Translations under genes and position numbers: made by a program | DNA from: Candidatus Saccharibacteria bacterium QS_5_54_17 | GTDB taxonomy: Bacteria > Patescibacteriota > Saccharimonadia > QS-5-54-17 | Length of the DNA stretch: 48,501 nucleotides | Reading direction: 5' to 3' | Assembly: GCA_003022365.1 (NCBI GenBank) | Contig: PXOU01000011.1 | Span: 1 to 48,501, forward strand | Part shown: positions 5,175 to 25,330 of the stretch, in pieces | Layout of the letters: each line of letters begins with the position of its first letter | Position numbering within the stretch: the stretch's first letter is position 1 | Notes under the pieces: generated by a model | The model's input: the letters and a program-made list of their open reading frames with translations, nothing else | Database searches by the model: none | Told to the model about the DNA's origin: nothing

Positions 5175-5448
5175 GACTACGTGTCAATGCTAATTCATGT
5201 ATTAATCTGCCGGCATCGCCTCATCCGTCTCGGTTAGGATTTTGGTGATTTTTTAGCAAGGGTTAGCGTTTGGCCGTGGCCAACTCGGTGCTATTGCGGG
5301 CAGCCTCCCGCGCCCGGTCCCAAAAATCGGTCCGTCCGGCTTGGCGGCCATAGAGGCGGAAGGCGAATACCCTGTGGGGAGCGTTTTTTGCTTCATAATG
5401 CTATGGATGTTAGGTTAACTGCTAAGTATCTAATTGTGGAGTGTGAAA

Positions 5449-8400
5449 ATGTTTGATCAATTTACCAACATATATTCACTTGATAAAACACTGCGTTTCA
5501 AACTAAATCCGGTTGGAAACACGCCAGATCTACTCGAGCAGAACCAAGTACTGAAAAAAGACCAAACCATTGAAAACAGCTACCAGCAAGCCAAACCGTA
5601 CCTTGACGAATTGCATCGCAGACTTATCAATGAAGCGCTTACTCCGGAAAACTTGCGAAACTTCCCGTTCAATGAATATGCAGCAGCGTATGAGTATATA
5701 AAAGAAATCAATCGCAACCGTTACTCCGCAAATAACAAAAAAGAAACCGCTGCTTCCAATGAATGGGAGAGCAAGAAAAGCGACTTCAGGAAAGCTGTTG
5801 TGGACATGCTCAACCAGCAAGCGGATCATTGGAAACAAAAGTACCAAGACTTAGAATTCAACAAAGGCGAATTAGAAAGGAAAGGTACTAATTTCTTAAC
5901 TTCTCCCGCCATAAACAAAATCCTCAAAACCGAGTTCCCGCCAGAAAAAGAGCAAGAATTAGTTGATAAGGGGTTCCCTTCACTGCATGTAGACGAAGAA
6001 GAGAATTCTGGTGAAAAACGCTACATTTTTGAAAGCTTTGACAAATTTGCTACTTATTTATCGCGTTTTCAGCAAACCAGGCAAAATCTGTATACCAGTG
6101 AAGATAAGGCTACAGCTATAGCAACACGGGTTGTTGCTAATTTTACTACTTTCATGCAGAACATCCATGAATTTCGAGACAAGCACTCATCGATAGAAGA
6201 TGAGTTGAATTTAAGCCAGGATGAAAAACGTATATTTGAACCGGTATCTTATCGGCATTACGTGTTGCAAGCGGATATTGAGGAGTACAACGCGGTAATC
6301 GGCGACATCAACAAGCGCATGAAAGAATTGCGCGATCAAAAACATAAAAACCCTAACTACAAAAAAACTGACTACCCTCTCCTGAGTACACTCGACAAAC
6401 AAATACTCGGGCTTCAAGAAAAGGAGCACCAACTCATTGAGGACGATGAAGACGTTTGGCCGTGTGTTGAAGAACTTTTAAACATTTCGGAACAACATTT
6501 CCCGGCCCTTCAGAAGTCAGTCAACGCACTTTCGGAAACGTTTTTTGAACCAGAATTACCCAACATTTACCTCAAAGACAAGAACGTTAACACTATTTCT
6601 AACCGCTGGTTTGTGAATGGAGACGATTTCTTGATCAGATTGCCGCAAAAAAACAAGAAAAAAGATGAGAAAGACACTCCAAAAATTAAAACGTTCATCT
6701 CCCTTCAAGACGTACGAACGGCAATCGATGACATGGAAGGGGTGTTATTCAAGGATCGGTTTTATGAAGAAGGTGCAATTAGCCCCGACCAATCAACTTG
6801 GCAGCAATTCCTTGGCATTTTTCAACACGAACTCTCCAACGCCATGGAAGAGTACTATCAATCAGCACGGTCATTGCGTGAGGTAAAGGATGCTGATCCC
6901 GCGTTCGACAAAGAACACCATACACCTGTTATCAAAGAATTCGCGGACGCGTGTTTACGAGTTTACCGCCTACTTGACTACTTTGCGCTTACGCACAGAC
7001 AGTCAAGCCAAATTCCCGATGTGTTCAGTACGGAGTTTTATGAGGAGTTCGATGCTCATTTTTATGAAGTGAATGTGCCGCGATATTATAACGCCCTCCG
7101 GGATTACATTGCCCAGGTGTTTTACGGAGAAGACAAAATCAAGCTTAATTTCGGCAAAGGAAATCTTTTAGGAGGATGGTCGGAGAGTCGTCGCAACGGC
7201 GCTCAATACTGCGGGTATATATTACGACGGCCCCAAACCAACACATACTACCTTGCCATCACGGATAATCCCTGGATTTTGGACACCGAAAAACATTCCG
7301 AGATTAAAGACACCAGCAACGGTATGTATGAAAAAATGGAGTACTCACAGCTTAAGGCACAAACTATTTACGGCCCCAGCTACGAGGGCGAGTTCGGTGT
7401 TAGTTATGATACTGATAAACAAAATTCAACCAACCAGAAGATCATTGAACGTGTTAAACGTCTACTACAGAAAAATTTTGTTGAGCAATATCCAGAACTC
7501 CAGACCATAATAGACAGGGAATACTCTGACGCTGATGCGTTAGCAAGGGAGGTTTCGAACCAAAATCTCTACAGAATCAGTTTCGTCCCTGTTAGCGCGG
7601 AATATATTGAGCAGGGAAGATATGAAGCTAAAAGAGGTGGATATAATCACTTATATATTTTCGAGATCACCAATAAAGATTTGGCCAAGCCCCACTCCGG
7701 GGGCAATCCCAACCTACACACCAGTTACTTCCTCCATTTATTCAGTCAAGAAAACTTATCCAATCCAGTATTAAAACTAAGCGGCAATGCCGAAATATTT
7801 TTCCGTCCCGGAAACCACGATTTACCCACTAAAACCGACTCGCTTGGTAAGCAGGTCACTACGCATAAACGCTACAGCAAAGATACATTGCTGTTCCATC
7901 TACCCGTAAGTATCAATTTTAAAAAAGGAAGCATGAAACCTAAACAGTTTAACGACATAACGAATCAAAAAATCGCTGATCAACCAAAAGACAACCTAAA
8001 TATTATCGGCATAGACAGAGGTGAAAAACACCTTGTTTATTATTCGGTGGTTGATTGTCATGGTCGGATCCTGGATCAGGGCAGCCTGAATGAAATCAAC
8101 GGGATCGACTATCATCGGCTTTTGGACGAACGGGAGAAAGAAAGGATTAAAAACCGCCAGTCTTGGGAACCGATCGAAGACATCAAGAACCTCAAAAAAG
8201 GGTACATCTCACACGTCGTGCACGCCTTATCCCGGCTCGCCGTGGAGCATAATGCCATCATCGTGATGGAAGATTTGAACATGCGGTTCAAGCAGATTCG
8301 GGGCGGAATAGAGAAAGGTACCTATCAACGCTTGGAACGGCAACTTATAGATAAACTGAATTATTTGGTTTTTAAGGACCGTGACGCGCGTGAAACGGGT

Positions 8401-9282
8401 GGTATACTTCGGGGGTATCAACTAACGGCGCCCTTTGAATCTTTCGAAAAGATGGGCAAGCAAACCGGCACTATTTTTTATACCGAAGCCGGGTATACAT
8501 CGGTTACTGACCCGTTGACCGGTTTTAGAAAAAACATATACCTCAAAAACTCCGATACCGTAGAAAATTTGAAGCAAGCCATCAACACGTTCCACACCAT
8601 AGAGTGGGACGAACAACGGGAAAGCTATTACTTCCGATACGATGTCGCCGACTTCAGCAAAAGCAAAGACACTCCTTCCCGAATATGGGAGGTATATGCC
8701 AACGTGCCGCGCATCATTCGCAAGAAAGTGGATGAACGCTGGACAGCCGCACCTGTTAATCCCAATGATTTACTTGCTGAACTTCTTCAAACGTATGACT
8801 TTGAAAACCCCTATGGGGACGTTCTGGAGCAGATTAGAATCAAGGAAGAAGCCGGAGAACTCAAAGGTGAACGTGAGTTCGACGGGGAACAACGTAACTT
8901 TTATAAATCGCTTGTATATATCTTTAACCTGATTCTGCAACTCAGGAACTCCATGAGTCATAAATACCGGGTAGAAAATGACTCGGTAATTACTGAAGGC
9001 GAAGATCTAGATTTCATCGCGTCGCCGGTGCCGCCGTTCTTTACCACCGAAAGTTCTTACTCTACGGCCAATTTCGGCGGATTCGAGCAGCGTTTTATCG
9101 GTAACCCCCAAGCCAGGGAAAAGTTCATGGAAGAATTCAACGGCGATGCCAATGGTGCCTATAACATCGCCCGCAAAGGAGTCCTGCTTCTCGACAGAGT
9201 CCGGGAAAACCCATCTAACCCCGATATTTTCATAACCAACCAAGAGTGGGATCGGGCGGCAACTGAATGGGATACATCGTAA
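5449..9282 (+). CDS. cas12a: Type V-A CRISPR effector Cas12a (Cpf1)
   Basis: N-terminal FTNIYSLDKTLRFKL, KIKLNF, RuvC-I IIGIDRGEKHL, RuvC-II IVMEDLN, RuvC-III DANGAYNIARKG; about 1277 aa. Confidence 0.98.
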   Translation: MFDQFTNIYSLDKTLRFKLNPVGNTPDLLEQNQVLKKDQTIENSYQQAKPYLDELHRRLINEALTPENLRNFPFNEYAAAYEYIKEINRNRYSANNKKETAASNEWESKKSDFRKAVVDMLNQQADHWKQKYQDLEFNKGELERKGTNFLTSPAINKILKTEFPPEKEQELVDKGFPSLHVDEEENSGEKRYIFESFDKFATYLSRFQQTRQNLYTSEDKATAIATRVVANFTTFMQNIHEFRDKHSSIEDELNLSQDEKRIFEPVSYRHYVLQADIEEYNAVIGDINKRMKELRDQKHKNPNYKKTDYPLLSTLDKQILGLQEKEHQLIEDDEDVWPCVEELLNISEQHFPALQKSVNALSETFFEPELPNIYLKDKNVNTISNRWFVNGDDFLIRLPQKNKKKDEKDTPKIKTFISLQDVRTAIDDMEGVLFKDRFYEEGAISPDQSTWQQFLGIFQHELSNAMEEYYQSARSLREVKDADPAFDKEHHTPVIKEFADACLRVYRLLDYFALTHRQSSQIPDVFSTEFYEEFDAHFYEVNVPRYYNALRDYIAQVFYGEDKIKLNFGKGNLLGGWSESRRNGAQYCGYILRRPQTNTYYLAITDNPWILDTEKHSEIKDTSNGMYEKMEYSQLKAQTIYGPSYEGEFGVSYDTDKQNSTNQKIIERVKRLLQKNFVEQYPELQTIIDREYSDADALAREVSNQNLYRISFVPVSAEYIEQGRYEAKRGGYNHLYIFEITNKDLAKPHSGGNPNLHTSYFLHLFSQENLSNPVLKLSGNAEIFFRPGNHDLPTKTDSLGKQVTTHKRYSKDTLLFHLPVSINFKKGSMKPKQFNDITNQKIADQPKDNLNIIGIDRGEKHLVYYSVVDCHGRILDQGSLNEINGIDYHRLLDEREKERIKNRQSWEPIEDIKNLKKGYISHVVHALSRLAVEHNAIIVMEDLNMRFKQIRGGIEKGTYQRLERQLIDKLNYLVFKDRDARETGGILRGYQLTAPFESFEKMGKQTGTIFYTEAGYTSVTDPLTGFRKNIYLKNSDTVENLKQAINTFHTIEWDEQRESYYFRYDVADFSKSKDTPSRIWEVYANVPRIIRKKVDERWTAAPVNPNDLLAELLQTYDFENPYGDVLEQIRIKEEAGELKGEREFDGEQRNFYKSLVYIFNLILQLRNSMSHKYRVENDSVITEGEDLDFIASPVPPFFTTESSYSTANFGGFEQRFIGNPQAREKFMEEFNGDANGAYNIARKGVLLLDRVRENPSNPDIFITNQEWDRAATEWDTS

Positions 9283-9308
9283 ACCAAAAAATATGTATCA
9301 CGAGCACC

Positions 9309-9851
9309 ATGGAACAGTATATCCAGATTTCAACTATCAATGACTTTCTCTTCTCACCGCGTTCTCTATATCTGCACAGTGTCTACGCGAGCTTTAACAC
9401 CAAAACCTATCACGCCTCCTCTCAAATCGCGGGTGACATCAATCATTCCACTCTAGAAAACGCTAACTATTCCTCGTCTACTCGTTACTTGCAGGGGGTG
9501 CCGGTATACAGCGAACACTACGGGATCATGGGTAAGATCGACATCTACGATCGCCATACCAAGTCGCTCATCGAACGTAAAACCAAAATCAAAACCATCC
9601 ATACCGGATACAAGTACCAATTATATGCCCAGTACTTCGGGCTCACTGAGGCCGGGTATGAGGTCGAGCGACTACTCCTGCATTCTTTGGACGACAACAG
9701 AAGGTACGAAGTTCCATTACCCGATCAAGCCGAAGTATCGGCATTCGAGCAAACCCTCCGGGCTATCTGGGAATATGACATCGCCGAACACGATCCTGCC
9801 CATTCCGATGATCGATGTGAGATGAGCATCTATAAGGATCTATCGTACTAA
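9309..9851 (+). CDS. cas4: Type V-A Cas4 (Fe-S cysteines largely replaced)
   Basis: ISTINDF, GKIDIY, ERK and QLYAQY motifs; lies between cas12a and cas1. Confidence 0.93.
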   Translation: MEQYIQISTINDFLFSPRSLYLHSVYASFNTKTYHASSQIAGDINHSTLENANYSSSTRYLQGVPVYSEHYGIMGKIDIYDRHTKSLIERKTKIKTIHTGYKYQLYAQYFGLTEAGYEVERLLLHSLDDNRRYEVPLPDQAEVSAFEQTLRAIWEYDIAEHDPAHSDDRCEMSIYKDLSY

Positions 9852-9854
9852 GTC

Positions 9855-10817
9855 ATGATTTCGTTACCGGACTTTAGAGAAAAACAACTACTGCTAATCC
9901 AAGCCCAGTGGCGTGATAAACCCAAGCTGAAATTCACCAATGAAAACATCGTGTTTACCAAACATGATGAGATTGTCAATCGGGCGTCCTGTCACAAAGT
10001 ATTCGCCATATACGTAATAGGCGACATATCCGTAACCACCAAGCTGATCAGAGAAACGGCAGGTTACGGAATATCCCTCTACTTCCTAAAGCACAACTTC
10101 GAAACGTACTCCAGCTGTCTTCCTCAAGCAGAAGGTCATTATTACTTACGCTCCAAGCAATATACTATGAGTCAGGATCAACAACTCGCCATAGCCAAGA
10201 ATATCGTCCGCGGTAAACTGATAAATCAACAAAGACTTTTAAAAGAAACAGGCATCGAACCCAAAAGCAAGCAATCTATTCACCGCCAAGTTGACGCGAC
10301 TCGTAGTTTTAAGGATTTGCTCGGTGTAGAAGGTAGCCATACCCGGAGCTTTTTTGCTGCCTATTTTAACCCTATAGACTGGCGAAGGCGCGCCCCGAGA
10401 ACCAAAGAGGACATCCCAAACTTTTTATTGGATATCGGATATAACTTGCTATTTAATTTCATCGACGCACTGTTGCGCATGCACGGATTCGATACCTACA
10501 AAGGATGTTATCATCGTTTATTCTTCGGCAGGAAATCACTCGCCTGTGATATACAAGAGCCGTTCCGGTGCTTGGTGGATAAACAACTTGTCAAAGCGTA
10601 TAACCTGGGGCAAATTGATGAATCGGATTTTTCTTTCAAAAACGGCCAGTACATGTTGTCATTCGACAAGAACCAGAAGTATGCTCAGATTTTCATGCGA
10701 TTACTTATGGACAATAAGGAAGACATCTTCAACTACGTCCATGAATTTTATCGACACGTTATGAACCCCGAGGAGAATCCGTTTCCAGAATACAAGGTGA
10801 GGGCAAGAAATCAATGA
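9855..10817 (+). CDS. cas1: Type V-A Cas1
   Basis: LLGVEG, NFLLDIGY, GFDTYKGCYH and LACDIQEPFR motifs. Confidence 0.96.
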   Translation: MISLPDFREKQLLLIQAQWRDKPKLKFTNENIVFTKHDEIVNRASCHKVFAIYVIGDISVTTKLIRETAGYGISLYFLKHNFETYSSCLPQAEGHYYLRSKQYTMSQDQQLAIAKNIVRGKLINQQRLLKETGIEPKSKQSIHRQVDATRSFKDLLGVEGSHTRSFFAAYFNPIDWRRRAPRTKEDIPNFLLDIGYNLLFNFIDALLRMHGFDTYKGCYHRLFFGRKSLACDIQEPFRCLVDKQLVKAYNLGQIDESDFSFKNGQYMLSFDKNQKYAQIFMRLLMDNKEDIFNYVHEFYRHVMNPEENPFPEYKVRARNQ

Positions 10818-11095
10818 TTATTATTGCTTACGACTTTAGTAGCAACAAAACTAGGGCGCAGTTCGCTAAGTTTCTTAAGAAATACGGGCGCAAGATCCAG
10901 TATTCAGTGTACGAAGTCAACAACAGTCCGCGTGTTTTACAAAACATCATGACCGAGATAGAATTAAAGTATAAGAAGCGCTTCAAAGGTTCGGATAGTA
11001 TTTTGATTTTTCAGCTCTGCAAAGGCGACGAAGCGAAAGTCAAACGGTATGGCTATGCGAGCAATGAAGAGCAAGACATTGTAATCTTCGAGTAG
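10814..11095 (+). CDS. cas2: Cas2
   Basis: MIIIAYDF..LKKYGRKIQYSVYE; overlaps the cas1 stop. Confidence 0.96.
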   Translation: MIIIAYDFSSNKTRAQFAKFLKKYGRKIQYSVYEVNNSPRVLQNIMTEIELKYKKRFKGSDSILIFQLCKGDEAKVKRYGYASNEEQDIVIFE

Positions 11096-11128: not shown

Positions 11129-11158
11129 GAAGTAGAAATTGTCGTGTAGGAGATTAGA
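11129..11158 (+). other. Anti-repeat (reverse complement of the CRISPR repeat) in the leader
   Basis: GAAGTAGAAATTGtcgTGTAGGagATTAGA versus repeat reverse complement GAAGTAGAAATTGgaTGTAGGtATTAGA. Confidence 0.8.
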
Positions 11159-11209
11159 TATGCAGGAAGCAGCAAACCCTGGTCTTAATATTTTAAGTCC
11201 GATTGATAA

Positions 11210-11288: not shown

Positions 11289-11882
11289 GTCTAATACCTA
11301 CATCCAATTTCTACTTCGGTAGATCTCTGCCGGGATGGGTACATTCTCGAATGTCTAATACCTACATCCAATTTCTACTTCGGTAGATTATCATCCTTAG
11401 GCACCCTTACAGTAGTGTCTAATACCTACATCCAATTTCTACTTCGGTAGATGCGGGGCGGGCGAAGACGTTCATAGGTCTAATACCTACATCCAATTTC
11501 TACTTCGGTAGATACTTTGCGCCTTGGCGAGCGTGCGGGGTCTAATACCTACATCCAATTTCTACTTCGGTAGATTACTTCGGTGGATACCTACGTCGAT
11601 GTCTAATACCTACATCCAATTTCTACTTCGGTAGATGATTGTATTTTTACCTCGCCTCCTCGTCTAATACCTACATCCAATTTCTACTTCGGTAGATTAT
11701 GACACATCCGGCACTGACGGGGTGTCTAATACCTACATCCAATTTCTACTTCGGTAGATAGGTCAAAGAGGTTGCGGCTTTCATCCGGAGTCTAATACCT
11801 ACATCCAATTTCTACTTCGGTAGATAGGCGGATTTGGCTTTTATTTGTCTAATACCTATATCCAATTTCTACTTCGGTAGAT
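11289..11882 (+). CRISPR. Type V-A CRISPR array, 10 repeats and 9 spacers
   Basis: 36-nt repeat GTCTAATACCTACATCCAATTTCTACTTCGGTAGAT at 11289, 11353, 11417, 11478, 11540, 11601, 11662, 11724, 11790 and 11847 (last has one C>T); spacers 28, 28, 25, 26, 25, 25, 26, 30 and 21 nt; Cas12a handle AATTTCTAC-TTCG-GTAGAT. Confidence 0.99.
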
Positions 11883-11984: not shown

Positions 11985-13007
11985 ATGAAAAAAGACTTAC
12001 CATACCAATCACTGCACACCCATACCGTTGATTCGGATGGGGAGGCTACGCACCAGCAGGTGCTGGAGGTGGCGGAGGCTAACGGATTCGGCGCCGTAGC
12101 GTTTACCGACCACGATACCGTGCTCAGTGACGAACGGCTGCGGCAATTACGTGAATATAACGGGCCGGTGGATTGGATCAGCGGCGTAGAGCTTTCCAGC
12201 GGGTTGCCCAAGGAGCAAGGCGGCGGCGCCACCAACAGCCTGCATGTCGTGGGGTTGTTCGTCGATCCGACCAATCAGGATCTGCGCCAGCATTGCCGCA
12301 AGACCCATGAGGCCCGCCAGAAACGGATGAAAGCGGTGGTAGCCAATCTGAATGAGCTCGGCCTCACCATTACCGAGGATGACTGCCTGGAAGCCGCCGG
12401 TGGGGGAAGCGTGGGACGTCCCCACATCGTGGAAGCCATTCATAAACACCAAACCAACCAACGGGTATTGGATGAACTGGAAGCCCGGGTGGCGGAGGAT
12501 GCCAAGCAAGATGAGCAGGCCAAGCAATGGTACGACCGCTACCAGCAAATCATCCGGGAAAGGCCGAGCCAGCGGCCGTTCGAACTGTTCCTCGGCAATG
12601 ATCCCTATTTCCCGGCCTTGGTTGACTTTGAATACTGGCAGGACTTTGACTCGGTAGTAAGTTTGATACGCGGCGCCGGCGGCATTGCCTTGTGGGCGCA
12701 CTGGTGGACAATAGTCAAAGAAGTGGACCGCGGCGGGCTTGCGGACATCGCCGAAGCAGGCCGGATTGATGGCTTAGAAACCAGCTTTCCGCTGGTCAGA
12801 GACGCCATGGACACCCGGGAGGAGACGCTGCAAGAAGTCGCGAAAACCTGCGAGGTTCCTGGCGTGACGGCCGTCGATTTGCATGCACTCCAAACCTTCG
12901 CCGATCTGGCCGCTCAATCCGAAGACGCGGCAACTACCACCGGCACGGTCCAACGCCTGATAGATGCCACCGGCGTGAGCACCGAGTGGAGTAGTCTAAA
13001 TCAATAG
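11985..13007 (+). CDS. PHP-domain phosphoesterase (TrpH/YciV-like)
   Basis: LHTHTVDSDG, FTDHDT, SGVELS, GRPHI, AH and DLH motifs. Confidence 0.92.
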   Translation: MKKDLPYQSLHTHTVDSDGEATHQQVLEVAEANGFGAVAFTDHDTVLSDERLRQLREYNGPVDWISGVELSSGLPKEQGGGATNSLHVVGLFVDPTNQDLRQHCRKTHEARQKRMKAVVANLNELGLTITEDDCLEAAGGGSVGRPHIVEAIHKHQTNQRVLDELEARVAEDAKQDEQAKQWYDRYQQIIRERPSQRPFELFLGNDPYFPALVDFEYWQDFDSVVSLIRGAGGIALWAHWWTIVKEVDRGGLADIAEAGRIDGLETSFPLVRDAMDTREETLQEVAKTCEVPGVTAVDLHALQTFADLAAQSEDAATTTGTVQRLIDATGVSTEWSSLNQ

Positions 13008-13114
13008 CGTCTAAGTCGGGATGAATCACCGAACTACTTTTCTGTGATGTCATCCTGAATTTATTTCAGGATCTGTTTCAAAAACATACCGAACTACTTT
13101 TCCGTGTGGAGATA

Positions 13115-13276
13115 CAAAAAGAGGAAAGGGGGTCATGGCGACGAGCCACACCCCCTTTCGGATAGAGCTACTTTTGTGGAGTCCTGGGCCCTGGATCAAT
13201 GTCCCGTATGACGTTAGTCACAGGATACGTGACCCAGTAACTCCAGTTATTATATAGGATGCACGGGGGCTGTCAA
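13115..13276 (-). ncRNA. Candidate structured small RNA cassette 3 (about 130 nt)
   Basis: Minus strand TTGACA-16-TATAAT; long-range TGGAG..TGGG/CCCA..CTCCA pairing; terminal GAAAGGGGGT/ACCCCCTTTC stem followed by a U-rich tail. Confidence 0.55.
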
Positions 13277-13337
13277 AGTTTATCCACAAGGTATGAAATT
13301 CTAATGCCTCCTACGGATAAACTCCGTGTTATCATCA

Positions 13338-13638
13338 GGATGATCCCGCCACCCAATTTCCAATTCGGTAGATTTGGCCTCCTTTCTTATGATTGCTTTC
13401 TACCTAGGTAAATTTGGTAGTGGACGGGACCGGGGAAAGTCTAATACCTATTCCAGTTTCTACTTGGGGTAAATTTCCGCATGTGCCATCGAACTGAGTA
13501 TGACAGCTAAGTGAATATATGAGATAATATTCAAAGCATCCGGATGGTACATCATTTGGTTCTGCCTCCTTTTTGTTGCCATGCCGGATGCTTCAAGTCT
13601 GATATCTACATCCAGTTTTGCTCGATGCAGATGTAGAT
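13338..13638 (+). CRISPR. Degenerate CRISPR-repeat cluster (orphan mini-array)
   Basis: Repeat-like copies: CCAATTTCCAATTCGGTAGAT (13353-13373), TTTCTACCTAGGTAAAT (13397-13413), GTCTAATACCTATTCCAGTTTCTACTTGGGGTAAAT (13439-13474), GTCTGATATCTACATCCAGTTTTGCTCGATGCAGAT (13597-13632). Confidence 0.8.
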
Positions 13639-13699
13639 GTGTTGTAATTTTTGCCTGACAGGATGTATTGTTGAGCAAACAACGATTGCCTGAGTGGGA

Positions 13700-13922
13700 G
13701 TCAGTAGACGGTAGACGGTAGACTGGGAACAAGGAAGAGGAAGAGGAAGCAGGAAGAGCAAGTAAGCGGAAATAAAAGCGTGTTATTCCTGCCCCCTCCG
13801 TCATTCCGAACTTGTTTCGGAATCCAATTTTGGAATAGATCCTGAAATAAATTCAGGATGACAACTTCAGGATGACATTTTCGTCATTTCGAGGACGTGT
13901 CATCGACAAGACCGGGGAACGT
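13700..13922. repeat. Heptamer tandem repeats plus REP-like cluster
   Basis: agtagac/ggtagac heptads, then GTCATTCCGAA and CAGGATGAC units. Confidence 0.85.
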
Positions 13923-24496: not shown

Positions 24497-25330
24497 ATGG
24501 GTGAGTTTCCCAAAGAGCCAACGGAAAGCGAATCCGGCCAGGAAATCAGGCAGGAGCTGAATGAGATGCTTGAATCCGCGGATGGTTCGTGGAGCGTGTA
24601 TGTACGATCATTCGACCAAGAAGAAGCCGCCTTCGAGTATGGGCGCGACAAAGTATTTTACGCGGCCAGCATTAACAAACTTCCCATCGCCTTATATGCG
24701 CTTTCCCAAGTAGAAGAGGGAAAGATAGGCCTGAGTGATAAACTGGAGGTAACCGAGGAAGTAAAACGCCCGGGTACTGGCATTTTACGGTTATTGCACG
24801 AAGGTTTGGACGTGACCGTGGAAGACGCGTTGACGCTGATGATGGCCGTTTCAGATAACACGGCCGCCAAGCTGATGGTGCGTAAAGCCGGCCCGGAAAA
24901 CATAAACCAATACTTGGAAGCTTCAGGGTTGGCGGACACGCGGCTGGAAGTACTGCCGGAAGGCAAGTTTTCTTACGGCTATACGACGGCCAAGGAGTCC
25001 GCGCAATTGCTGCGAGGGATCCATAATGCCGAATACGTTTCCCCGGAAGCTTCCCGGAAATTGCTCGGTATGATGGGGAGGAATCATTTCAGTCACGGAG
25101 TGCGCAGATATTTACCCAAAGACCTTAAAATCGCCAACAAAGAAGGCAGCTTGGAAGATAACCGTCATGAAATCGCCGCGGTTATGGCTGAACGTCCATA
25201 TGCCATATGCGTGTTCGCGGATGAGCTGGCCGACCAGTCATATCATGTCGATAATGCCGGTGTGCTGCAACGGGCGCGGATAGCCGAAAAAGTTCACGCT
25301 TTAATGCAAGAGAATGGAGAGAATACGTGA
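24497..25330 (+). CDS. Serine hydrolase, class A beta-lactamase/PBP-A-like fold
   Basis: SxxK (SINK), SDN and KEG motifs; no signal peptide. Confidence 0.85.
   Translation: MGEFPKEPTESESGQEIRQELNEMLESADGSWSVYVRSFDQEEAAFEYGRDKVFYAASINKLPIALYALSQVEEGKIGLSDKLEVTEEVKRPGTGILRLLHEGLDVTVEDALTLMMAVSDNTAAKLMVRKAGPENINQYLEASGLADTRLEVLPEGKFSYGYTTAKESAQLLRGIHNAEYVSPEASRKLLGMMGRNHFSHGVRRYLPKDLKIANKEGSLEDNRHEIAAVMAERPYAICVFADELADQSYHVDNAGVLQRARIAEKVHALMQENGENT

Follow-up and report, generated by a model that had tools for sequence, protein, structure and literature searches.

The degenerate CRISPR repeats that lie downstream of the type V-A array of Candidatus Saccharibacteria bacterium QS_5_54_17 are probably a leaderless, decaying leftover of that same array, yielding no loadable guide RNA. 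In the course of events that we propose, a piece of the array would have lost its leader and, therefore, its further spacer acquisition; its handles would then have decayed or become masked by local hairpins, for which terminal V-A repeats offer a reported precedent, while recombination between the repeats may be shrinking the cluster.

The analyzed window comprises 48,501 nt and is one of the contigs of a source genome of 816 kb that is 90% complete. Its relevant features are the following.

5434–9282, + strand: cas12a, RuvC motifs DRGE, MEDL and DANG present
9267–11095, + strand: cas4, cas1 and cas2
11129–11159, + strand: leader anti-repeat, complementary to repeat positions 1–29 and, by prediction, forming a long hairpin together with repeat 1
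11289–11882, + strand: main CRISPR array, 10 repeats of 36 nt with the handle intact in all
11985–13007, + strand: PHP-domain gene between array and cluster, also present on a relative's contig without the cas module
13249–13276, − strand: sigma-70-type promoter, a perfect match (one of two genome-wide) pointing away from the cluster
13300–13321, + strand: R0, stray 5′ repeat fragment, not significant alone and variable in relatives
13338–13373, + strand: R1, degenerate repeat with diverged 5′ half and two stem mismatches, retaining the rare TTCG loop of the local array
13344–13428, + strand: long predicted hairpin (z −2.6), in which the R1 5′ arm pairs with the R2 end and the following spacer, burying both handle remnants
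about 13395–13413, + strand: R2, 3′ part of a repeat only, with a stem C-A mismatch and C at −18
13439–13474, + strand: R3, best-kept copy, with G at the invariant A(−18) and a stem C-A mismatch; the sole copy predicted to pair with the leader anti-repeat
13475–13596, + strand: 122-nt interval that contains a strong hairpin; one relative's contig skips it and joins R3 to the end of R4
13597–13632, + strand: R4, terminal copy with TTTGC/GCAGA and G at −18, its 5′ half pairing with downstream 13631–13640

The order cas12a-cas4-cas1-cas2-array, the RuvC motifs and the handle hairpin place the locus in type V-A, and the effector scores as a Cas12a (TIGR04330, 621 bits against a cut-off of 300). 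The contig is chromosomal, carrying a tRNA-synthetase gene, a tRNA and RNase P. Close relatives of this Cas12a were found neither in single-protein scans nor in 400 genomes of the same class, the nearest protein being 50% identical, and a search of plasmids found no Cas12a. Among further features of the locus, spacer 5 of the array (11576–11600) opens with nine bases of the repeat's own sequence after TTTC, the PHP protein (11985–13007) matches RNase RNM and nucleoside bisphosphate phosphatase models far under their cut-offs, and the gene at 24497–25330 matches the Pfam family Beta-lactamase2. Most contigs of the genome end in one of a small number of multi-copy termini that resemble insertion sequences, and palindromic repeats are frequent between genes, including those at 13048–13082 and 13799–13871 of the window.

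The initial annotation had described four repeat-like copies with irregular spacing about 1.5 kb past the array, and this description holds: the gaps measure 23, 25 and 122 nt, and R1 begins 1,456 nt past the last array repeat. With the array masked, seven of 54,316 genome tiles score at least 30 against the repeat, six of them in the cluster and one in the leader anti-repeat. R1, R3 and R4 reach tile scores of 38, 44 and 32, compared to 28 for the best unrelated tile; R2, with a score of 22 (91 tiles as good), is not significant on its own. The same is true of the stray at 13300 (score 16, 3,626 tiles as good). It does resemble the 5′ end of the repeat, as had been noted, without reaching significance, and its predicted pairing with the anti-repeat amounts to −20.3 kcal/mol, only about the 5th percentile (−21.1) of random 36-mers. 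When 87 Cas12a repeats were compared, the local repeat gave the best summed match to the cluster, ranking first for R1 (tied), R3 and R4. R1 also keeps the TTCG loop, for which C at that loop position occurs in only 3/86 other repeats. The cluster thus consists of repeats of the cognate family in direct orientation and, as neither a leader motif nor an anti-repeat was found near it, without a leader, as is expected of a relic array. No Rfam match was found in the cluster region.

Of 45 other non-redundant Cas12a loci for which 2 kb or more of downstream sequence exists, none has a detached multi-copy cluster of this kind. Two loci (L036, L113) carry extra contiguous trailer units and three further loci single copies. 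Other irregular arrangements were seen as well: the array of L069 (21791–23448) is split by a 1.6-kb gap, the repeats at the array end of L094 are interrupted several times by one and the same inserted sequence, and L086 has one repeat unit with an intact handle directly upstream of cas12a (9660–9720), a CreR-like candidate. In the window itself, 13553–13580 in the R3–R4 interval resembles 13372–13396, the R1 end with its spacer (p 0.03–0.04), perhaps through an internal duplication.

Can these copies serve as guide RNAs? Three handle bases that lay outside the search pattern, A(−18), T(−10) and T(−1), show no variation across 86/86 distinct related repeats, all other handle columns being fixed by the pattern and hence without weight. 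At position −18, R3 and R4 carry G and R2 carries C; in addition, the handle stem has two mismatches in R1 and one each in R2 and R3. Folded with their downstream sequence, R1 and R3 show a stem-pair probability of 0 and R2 of at most 0.2, and the outer two pairs of R4 reach 0.03–0.04. For the array repeats the value is 0.8–1.0 in 8/10 but just 0 in repeat 1 and 0.4 in repeat 7, so that handle folding alone is not decisive. R4 had attracted attention for a compensatory change in its stem. TTTGC/GCAGA is indeed present: one pair has changed on both sides (A-U to G-C), another is a wobble, and the loop has 5 nt; however, the fold of R4 is dominated by a stronger hairpin of −14.8 kcal/mol between its 5′ half and downstream bases. 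In simulation, a stem given three random changes retains every pair and includes a double change in about 6% of trials, so that one compensatory change among four copies is weak evidence.

Further evidence for decay comes from related strains. Cluster DNA matched none of 40 related genomes, and 13095–13300 none of seven genomes of the family; the strain evidence therefore rests on metagenome contigs, namely halite contigs from different strains within one study, with depths of mostly 4–15. Compared with 13300–13431, a contig of run X3 differs at no fewer than 15 and at most 19 of 132 bases and has a 3-nt insertion; it then passes directly from 13431 to 13629, with one repeat copy at the junction, a collapse of R3 onto R4. 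A second X3 contig has 68 letters in place of 13306–13393, and a contig of run X1 joins 13159 to 13626 with 90 other letters, most of the cluster being deleted. At depths of 4–8, the divergence of the cluster (11–14%) is near the 12% estimated at third codon positions of the PHP gene (26 of 38 differences, on another contig). Run X6 gave no cover of the locus. The collapse and the deletion, along with the match to the local repeat, agree with the suggestion of the initial annotation that the cluster is a decayed piece of the array. The decay is, against a relic, not polar, R3 being better kept than R1 and R2. We considered whether the cluster persists without cas12a, as X1, X3 and X4 lack cover of cas12a at 80% likeness and X1 and X3 hold pieces of the cluster; a gap in cover proves nothing, and we make no such claim.

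As to the origin of the leftover alone, one long array may have lost its tail when the PHP gene was inserted together with its promoter and terminator; a split by the PHP gene had also been proposed in the initial annotation. The shared repeat and strand and the cluster's lack of its own leader are what such an event would leave behind, and L069 offers one other case of a split array. The relatives speak against it. An X4 contig of 8,097 nt follows the left flank to 5366, continues with 5,316 other letters, then enters the PHP gene, and is unlike the window after 13159. From this layout it follows that the cas module occupies a replaceable slot and that PHP can be present without CRISPR DNA to its left or right, an arrangement that lends no support to an insertion of PHP into an array. 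Moreover, the cluster spacers match the array spacers at low scores only, and PHP homologues were found in 0/160 Cas12a loci. We therefore regard a split by PHP insertion as rather unlikely.

A second alternative, which we consider improbable, is that the cluster acts as a structured RNA or decoy, in which RNase III would cut its hairpins or R3 would bind the anti-repeat, damping guide maturation without DNA targeting. The cluster region does fold better than shuffled sequence (z −2.4), the hairpin of the 122-nt gap (13535–13592) reaches z −5.4, and every significant copy lies within a predicted hairpin. In the 13344–13428 hairpin, all six changes, among the differences listed, at places paired with P ≥0.8 keep the pairing, against an expectation of about 0.44 per change, a post hoc count from one haplotype with a C-rich arm. 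These changes argue against pure drift. Positions 13332 and 13340 change together, while the change at 13341 breaks a pair. In addition, R3 and the leader anti-repeat have a predicted pairing energy of −25.8 kcal/mol, below the 1st percentile (−24.4) of the random 36-mer background. However, this pairing is predicted to be weaker than that of an array repeat (net −9.5 vs −14.9), and the anti-repeat is predicted to be taken up in cis by repeat 1. A + strand promoter scan for the cluster gave nothing except a 10-of-12 match inside it at 13500, the content of the cluster varies between strains, and no such cluster was seen at the other loci. A decaying leftover remains our preferred reading.

The surroundings of the cluster hold some further candidate elements. 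On the − strand, the promoter match at 13276–13249 precedes a candidate small RNA of ~130 nt (13115–13243), with a closed 68-nt stem followed by a U-tract hairpin (z −4.4); it is partly present in the X1 and X3 contigs, has no Rfam match and was found in none of the seven family genomes. Adjoining the −35 box, TTATCCACA at 13280–13288, with nine copies in the genome, is what we take to be a DnaA-box-like motif. Within the R3–R4 hairpin, 13460–13555 on the − strand holds a Shine-Dalgarno-like AGGAGG 9 nt before the ATG of a 31-codon hydrophobic frame, which has no NCBIfam match and whose interval is skipped in one relative's contig.

The weakest alternative, CreR- or scaRNA-like guides that steer Cas12a to a promoter via a short seed match, is very unlikely and largely refuted: the spacings of 23 and 25 nt are guide-sized, R1 retains 17/19 handle bases and a V-A CreR exists (10.1101/2023.03.10.532045, as far as its accessible text goes), but that tested CreR has a 5′ handle identical to the array's, which no cluster copy has, the arrangement recurs at none of the other loci, and a relative shows three differences within the first putative guide, including one at position 3. 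A genome-wide search for PAM-adjacent matches, the check named alongside this proposal, used eight candidate guides (six from the cluster), 21,542 TTTV sites and 60 shuffles each; no guide exceeded the shuffles (lowest p 0.07, in the 90% complete genome with the PAM assumed to be TTV/TTTV). Seed matches were likewise absent for any guide from five candidate promoter regions (cas12a, array, PHP and flanking). The first guide matches a multi-copy element at 15 of 20 positions, but with a seed of just 2 nt, and its CCTCC motif occurs at insertion-sequence-like contig ends without any relation to a PAM; both were rejected. Phage searches gave chance matches only for the cluster and none for the array, and viral contigs held no exact match to five patterns.

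The maturation of the array's own guides is of wider interest. The WED segment at ~7789–7884 of the window's Cas12a comprises 21 aa between the motifs EIFxR and RYxxD, and in an alignment the His-bearing segment of three solved Cas12a proteins is 17–19 aa longer. The window protein lacks the His…IKD motif and thus appears to have no WED RNase site of its own. The available portions of two sources place the FnCas12a RNase residues H843, K852, K869 and F873 in WED-III (10.1101/122648, PMC11127173). A structure model of the window protein from its single sequence was unusable (pLDDT 33), and our Cas12a tree is a quick build with four long branches. The Fn residue numbers presumably correspond to the segment missing in the window's Cas12a; the protein might use other residues for RNA trimming.

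This loss coincides with a feature of the leader. The anti-repeat at 11129–11159, pointed out in the initial annotation, is not a local accident and recurs in related leaders: an antisense score of at least 26 was reached in 54/91 non-redundant leaders, compared to one in sense orientation and 0/54 trailers. Among 90 loci with array and leader, a ~29-nt anti-repeat 95–240 nt upstream was found in 76/79 loci without the RNase motif and in 0/11 with it, using a cut-off chosen after the data were seen; a shuffle-based duplex test gave 66/79 versus 0/11. As all 11 motif-bearing proteins form one clade, the association represents a single evolutionary contrast. In an even sample of the same phylum, 12/12 Cas12a proteins examined lacked the RNase motif (13 strong matches, one at a contig edge being left out), and the loci with an array had the anti-repeat in 6/6, four of which are already in the main count. 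Two near-identical motif-bearing loci have a shorter anti-repeat, covering positions 1–17 in the one aligned and leaving the handle free. The archaeal-labelled locus L027 (genome G403) encodes a Cas12a without the RNase motif alongside an RNase III gene; this may reflect a binning error.

On the transcribed strand, the anti-repeat is predicted to form a duplex with the repeat, as in tracrRNA-dependent maturation. Across 67 loci, 140 of its mismatches are G-U-compatible on the + strand vs 50 on the − strand. In the window, leader and repeat 1 are predicted to form one hairpin of −103 kcal/mol, with 27 of the first 29 repeat bases paired, and pairing above 0.5 between repeat 1 and the distal leader is predicted for 60/77 motif-lacking vs 0/9 motif-bearing loci. 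The anti-repeat frequently mismatches the repeat at four handle positions (identity about 0.6). Its rank for the cognate repeat (median 9/86) does not separate from that of the control group (10/86). An RNase III gene is present in the source genome and in 5/5 hosts of each group and, being found in both, does not discriminate between them. A leader motif AAACC-n-GTCTT (11174–11186) was also seen, in 65/92 motif-lacking and 7/11 motif-bearing loci.

Read from the sequences, these data suggest a tracrRNA-like, RNase III-assisted maturation in a Cas12a branch, and the host Cas12a likely matures its guides through the leader anti-repeat duplex and host RNase III. The leader anti-repeat would pair with the repeats, RNase III would cut the duplex, and the handle would refold after cutting, aided by the mismatches at the four handle positions. 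Of the cluster copies, R3 alone would still be able to pair with the anti-repeat, and less strongly than a repeat of the array. More tentatively still, a large Cas12a branch, dominant in small-genome Patescibacteria-like hosts, may be unable to trim its guides and use a tracrRNA-like leader anti-repeat with host RNase III instead, the cluster being a by-product of this pathway, either silenced by hairpins or acting as a decoy. Taken by itself, the cluster is of little importance, as relic repeats near V-A loci are already described. Self-processing without a helper RNA, in contrast, is treated as a defining trait of Cas12a, to which an RNase-less branch with a conserved leader anti-repeat would, if true, be an exception and would suggest an intermediate between tracrRNA-using Cas12 and self-processing Cas12a. 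Such enzymes would then be expected not to work with plain repeat-spacer arrays and to need the leader or pre-cut guides, which would bear on mining RNase-less Cas12a enzymes as tools. Our literature search, which covered few subscription papers, found no Cas12a branch without the RNase segment or with a leader anti-repeat; nor did it find the link between leader anti-repeat and RNase loss.

Several known systems resemble parts of this locus; the comparisons below refer to the accessible parts of each source. Shmakov et al. (10.1101/2023.03.03.530964) describe repeat-like sequences that stand alone, present in about half of V-A loci and in most cases located upstream of cas12a, as well as remnant repeats at lost V-A loci, with a remnant in Francisella that may aid recapture. 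The cluster is like these remnants in being degenerate repeats outside a V-A array without a conserved target, but its four to five copies follow a non-cas gene, where theirs is one unit preceding cas12a, and it is not conserved in other loci. The V-A CreR of Moraxella bovoculi (10.1101/2023.03.10.532045) is likewise a degenerate mini-CRISPR near cas12a; it lies upstream of that gene, its 20-nt handle is identical to that of the array, and its target, flanked by TTTA, is at the cas12a promoter, whereas the cluster has none of these. The RNA anti-CRISPRs RacrVA1-3, for which PMC10651486 is our source, are also repeat-like RNAs without a target and could compete for Cas12a; they are located on viruses and plasmids, while the cluster is chromosomal with broken handles.

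The leader resembles in one respect the leader-repeat hairpins of types II-A and VI-B (PMC13187072), in which a leader segment is also predicted to pair with the first repeat. There, the hairpins block extraneous crRNA, whereas the V-A anti-repeat tracks the loss of the RNase motif; because in V-A the newest guide belongs to the first repeat, a purely blocking role would make little sense there. The same source, citing Liao 2019, describes the last V-A repeat as silenced by mutation. The portions of PMC9067536 available to us report no V-A anti-repeat. Types V-B and V-E mature their guides with tracrRNA and RNase III (PMC11127173), and the window resembles them in that an anti-repeat lies on the pre-crRNA strand between cas2 and the array, and the host has an RNase III gene. 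V-A is described in that source as self-processing; the window's Cas12a is without the segment that presumably holds the RNase residues, yet its repeats have kept the canonical handle.
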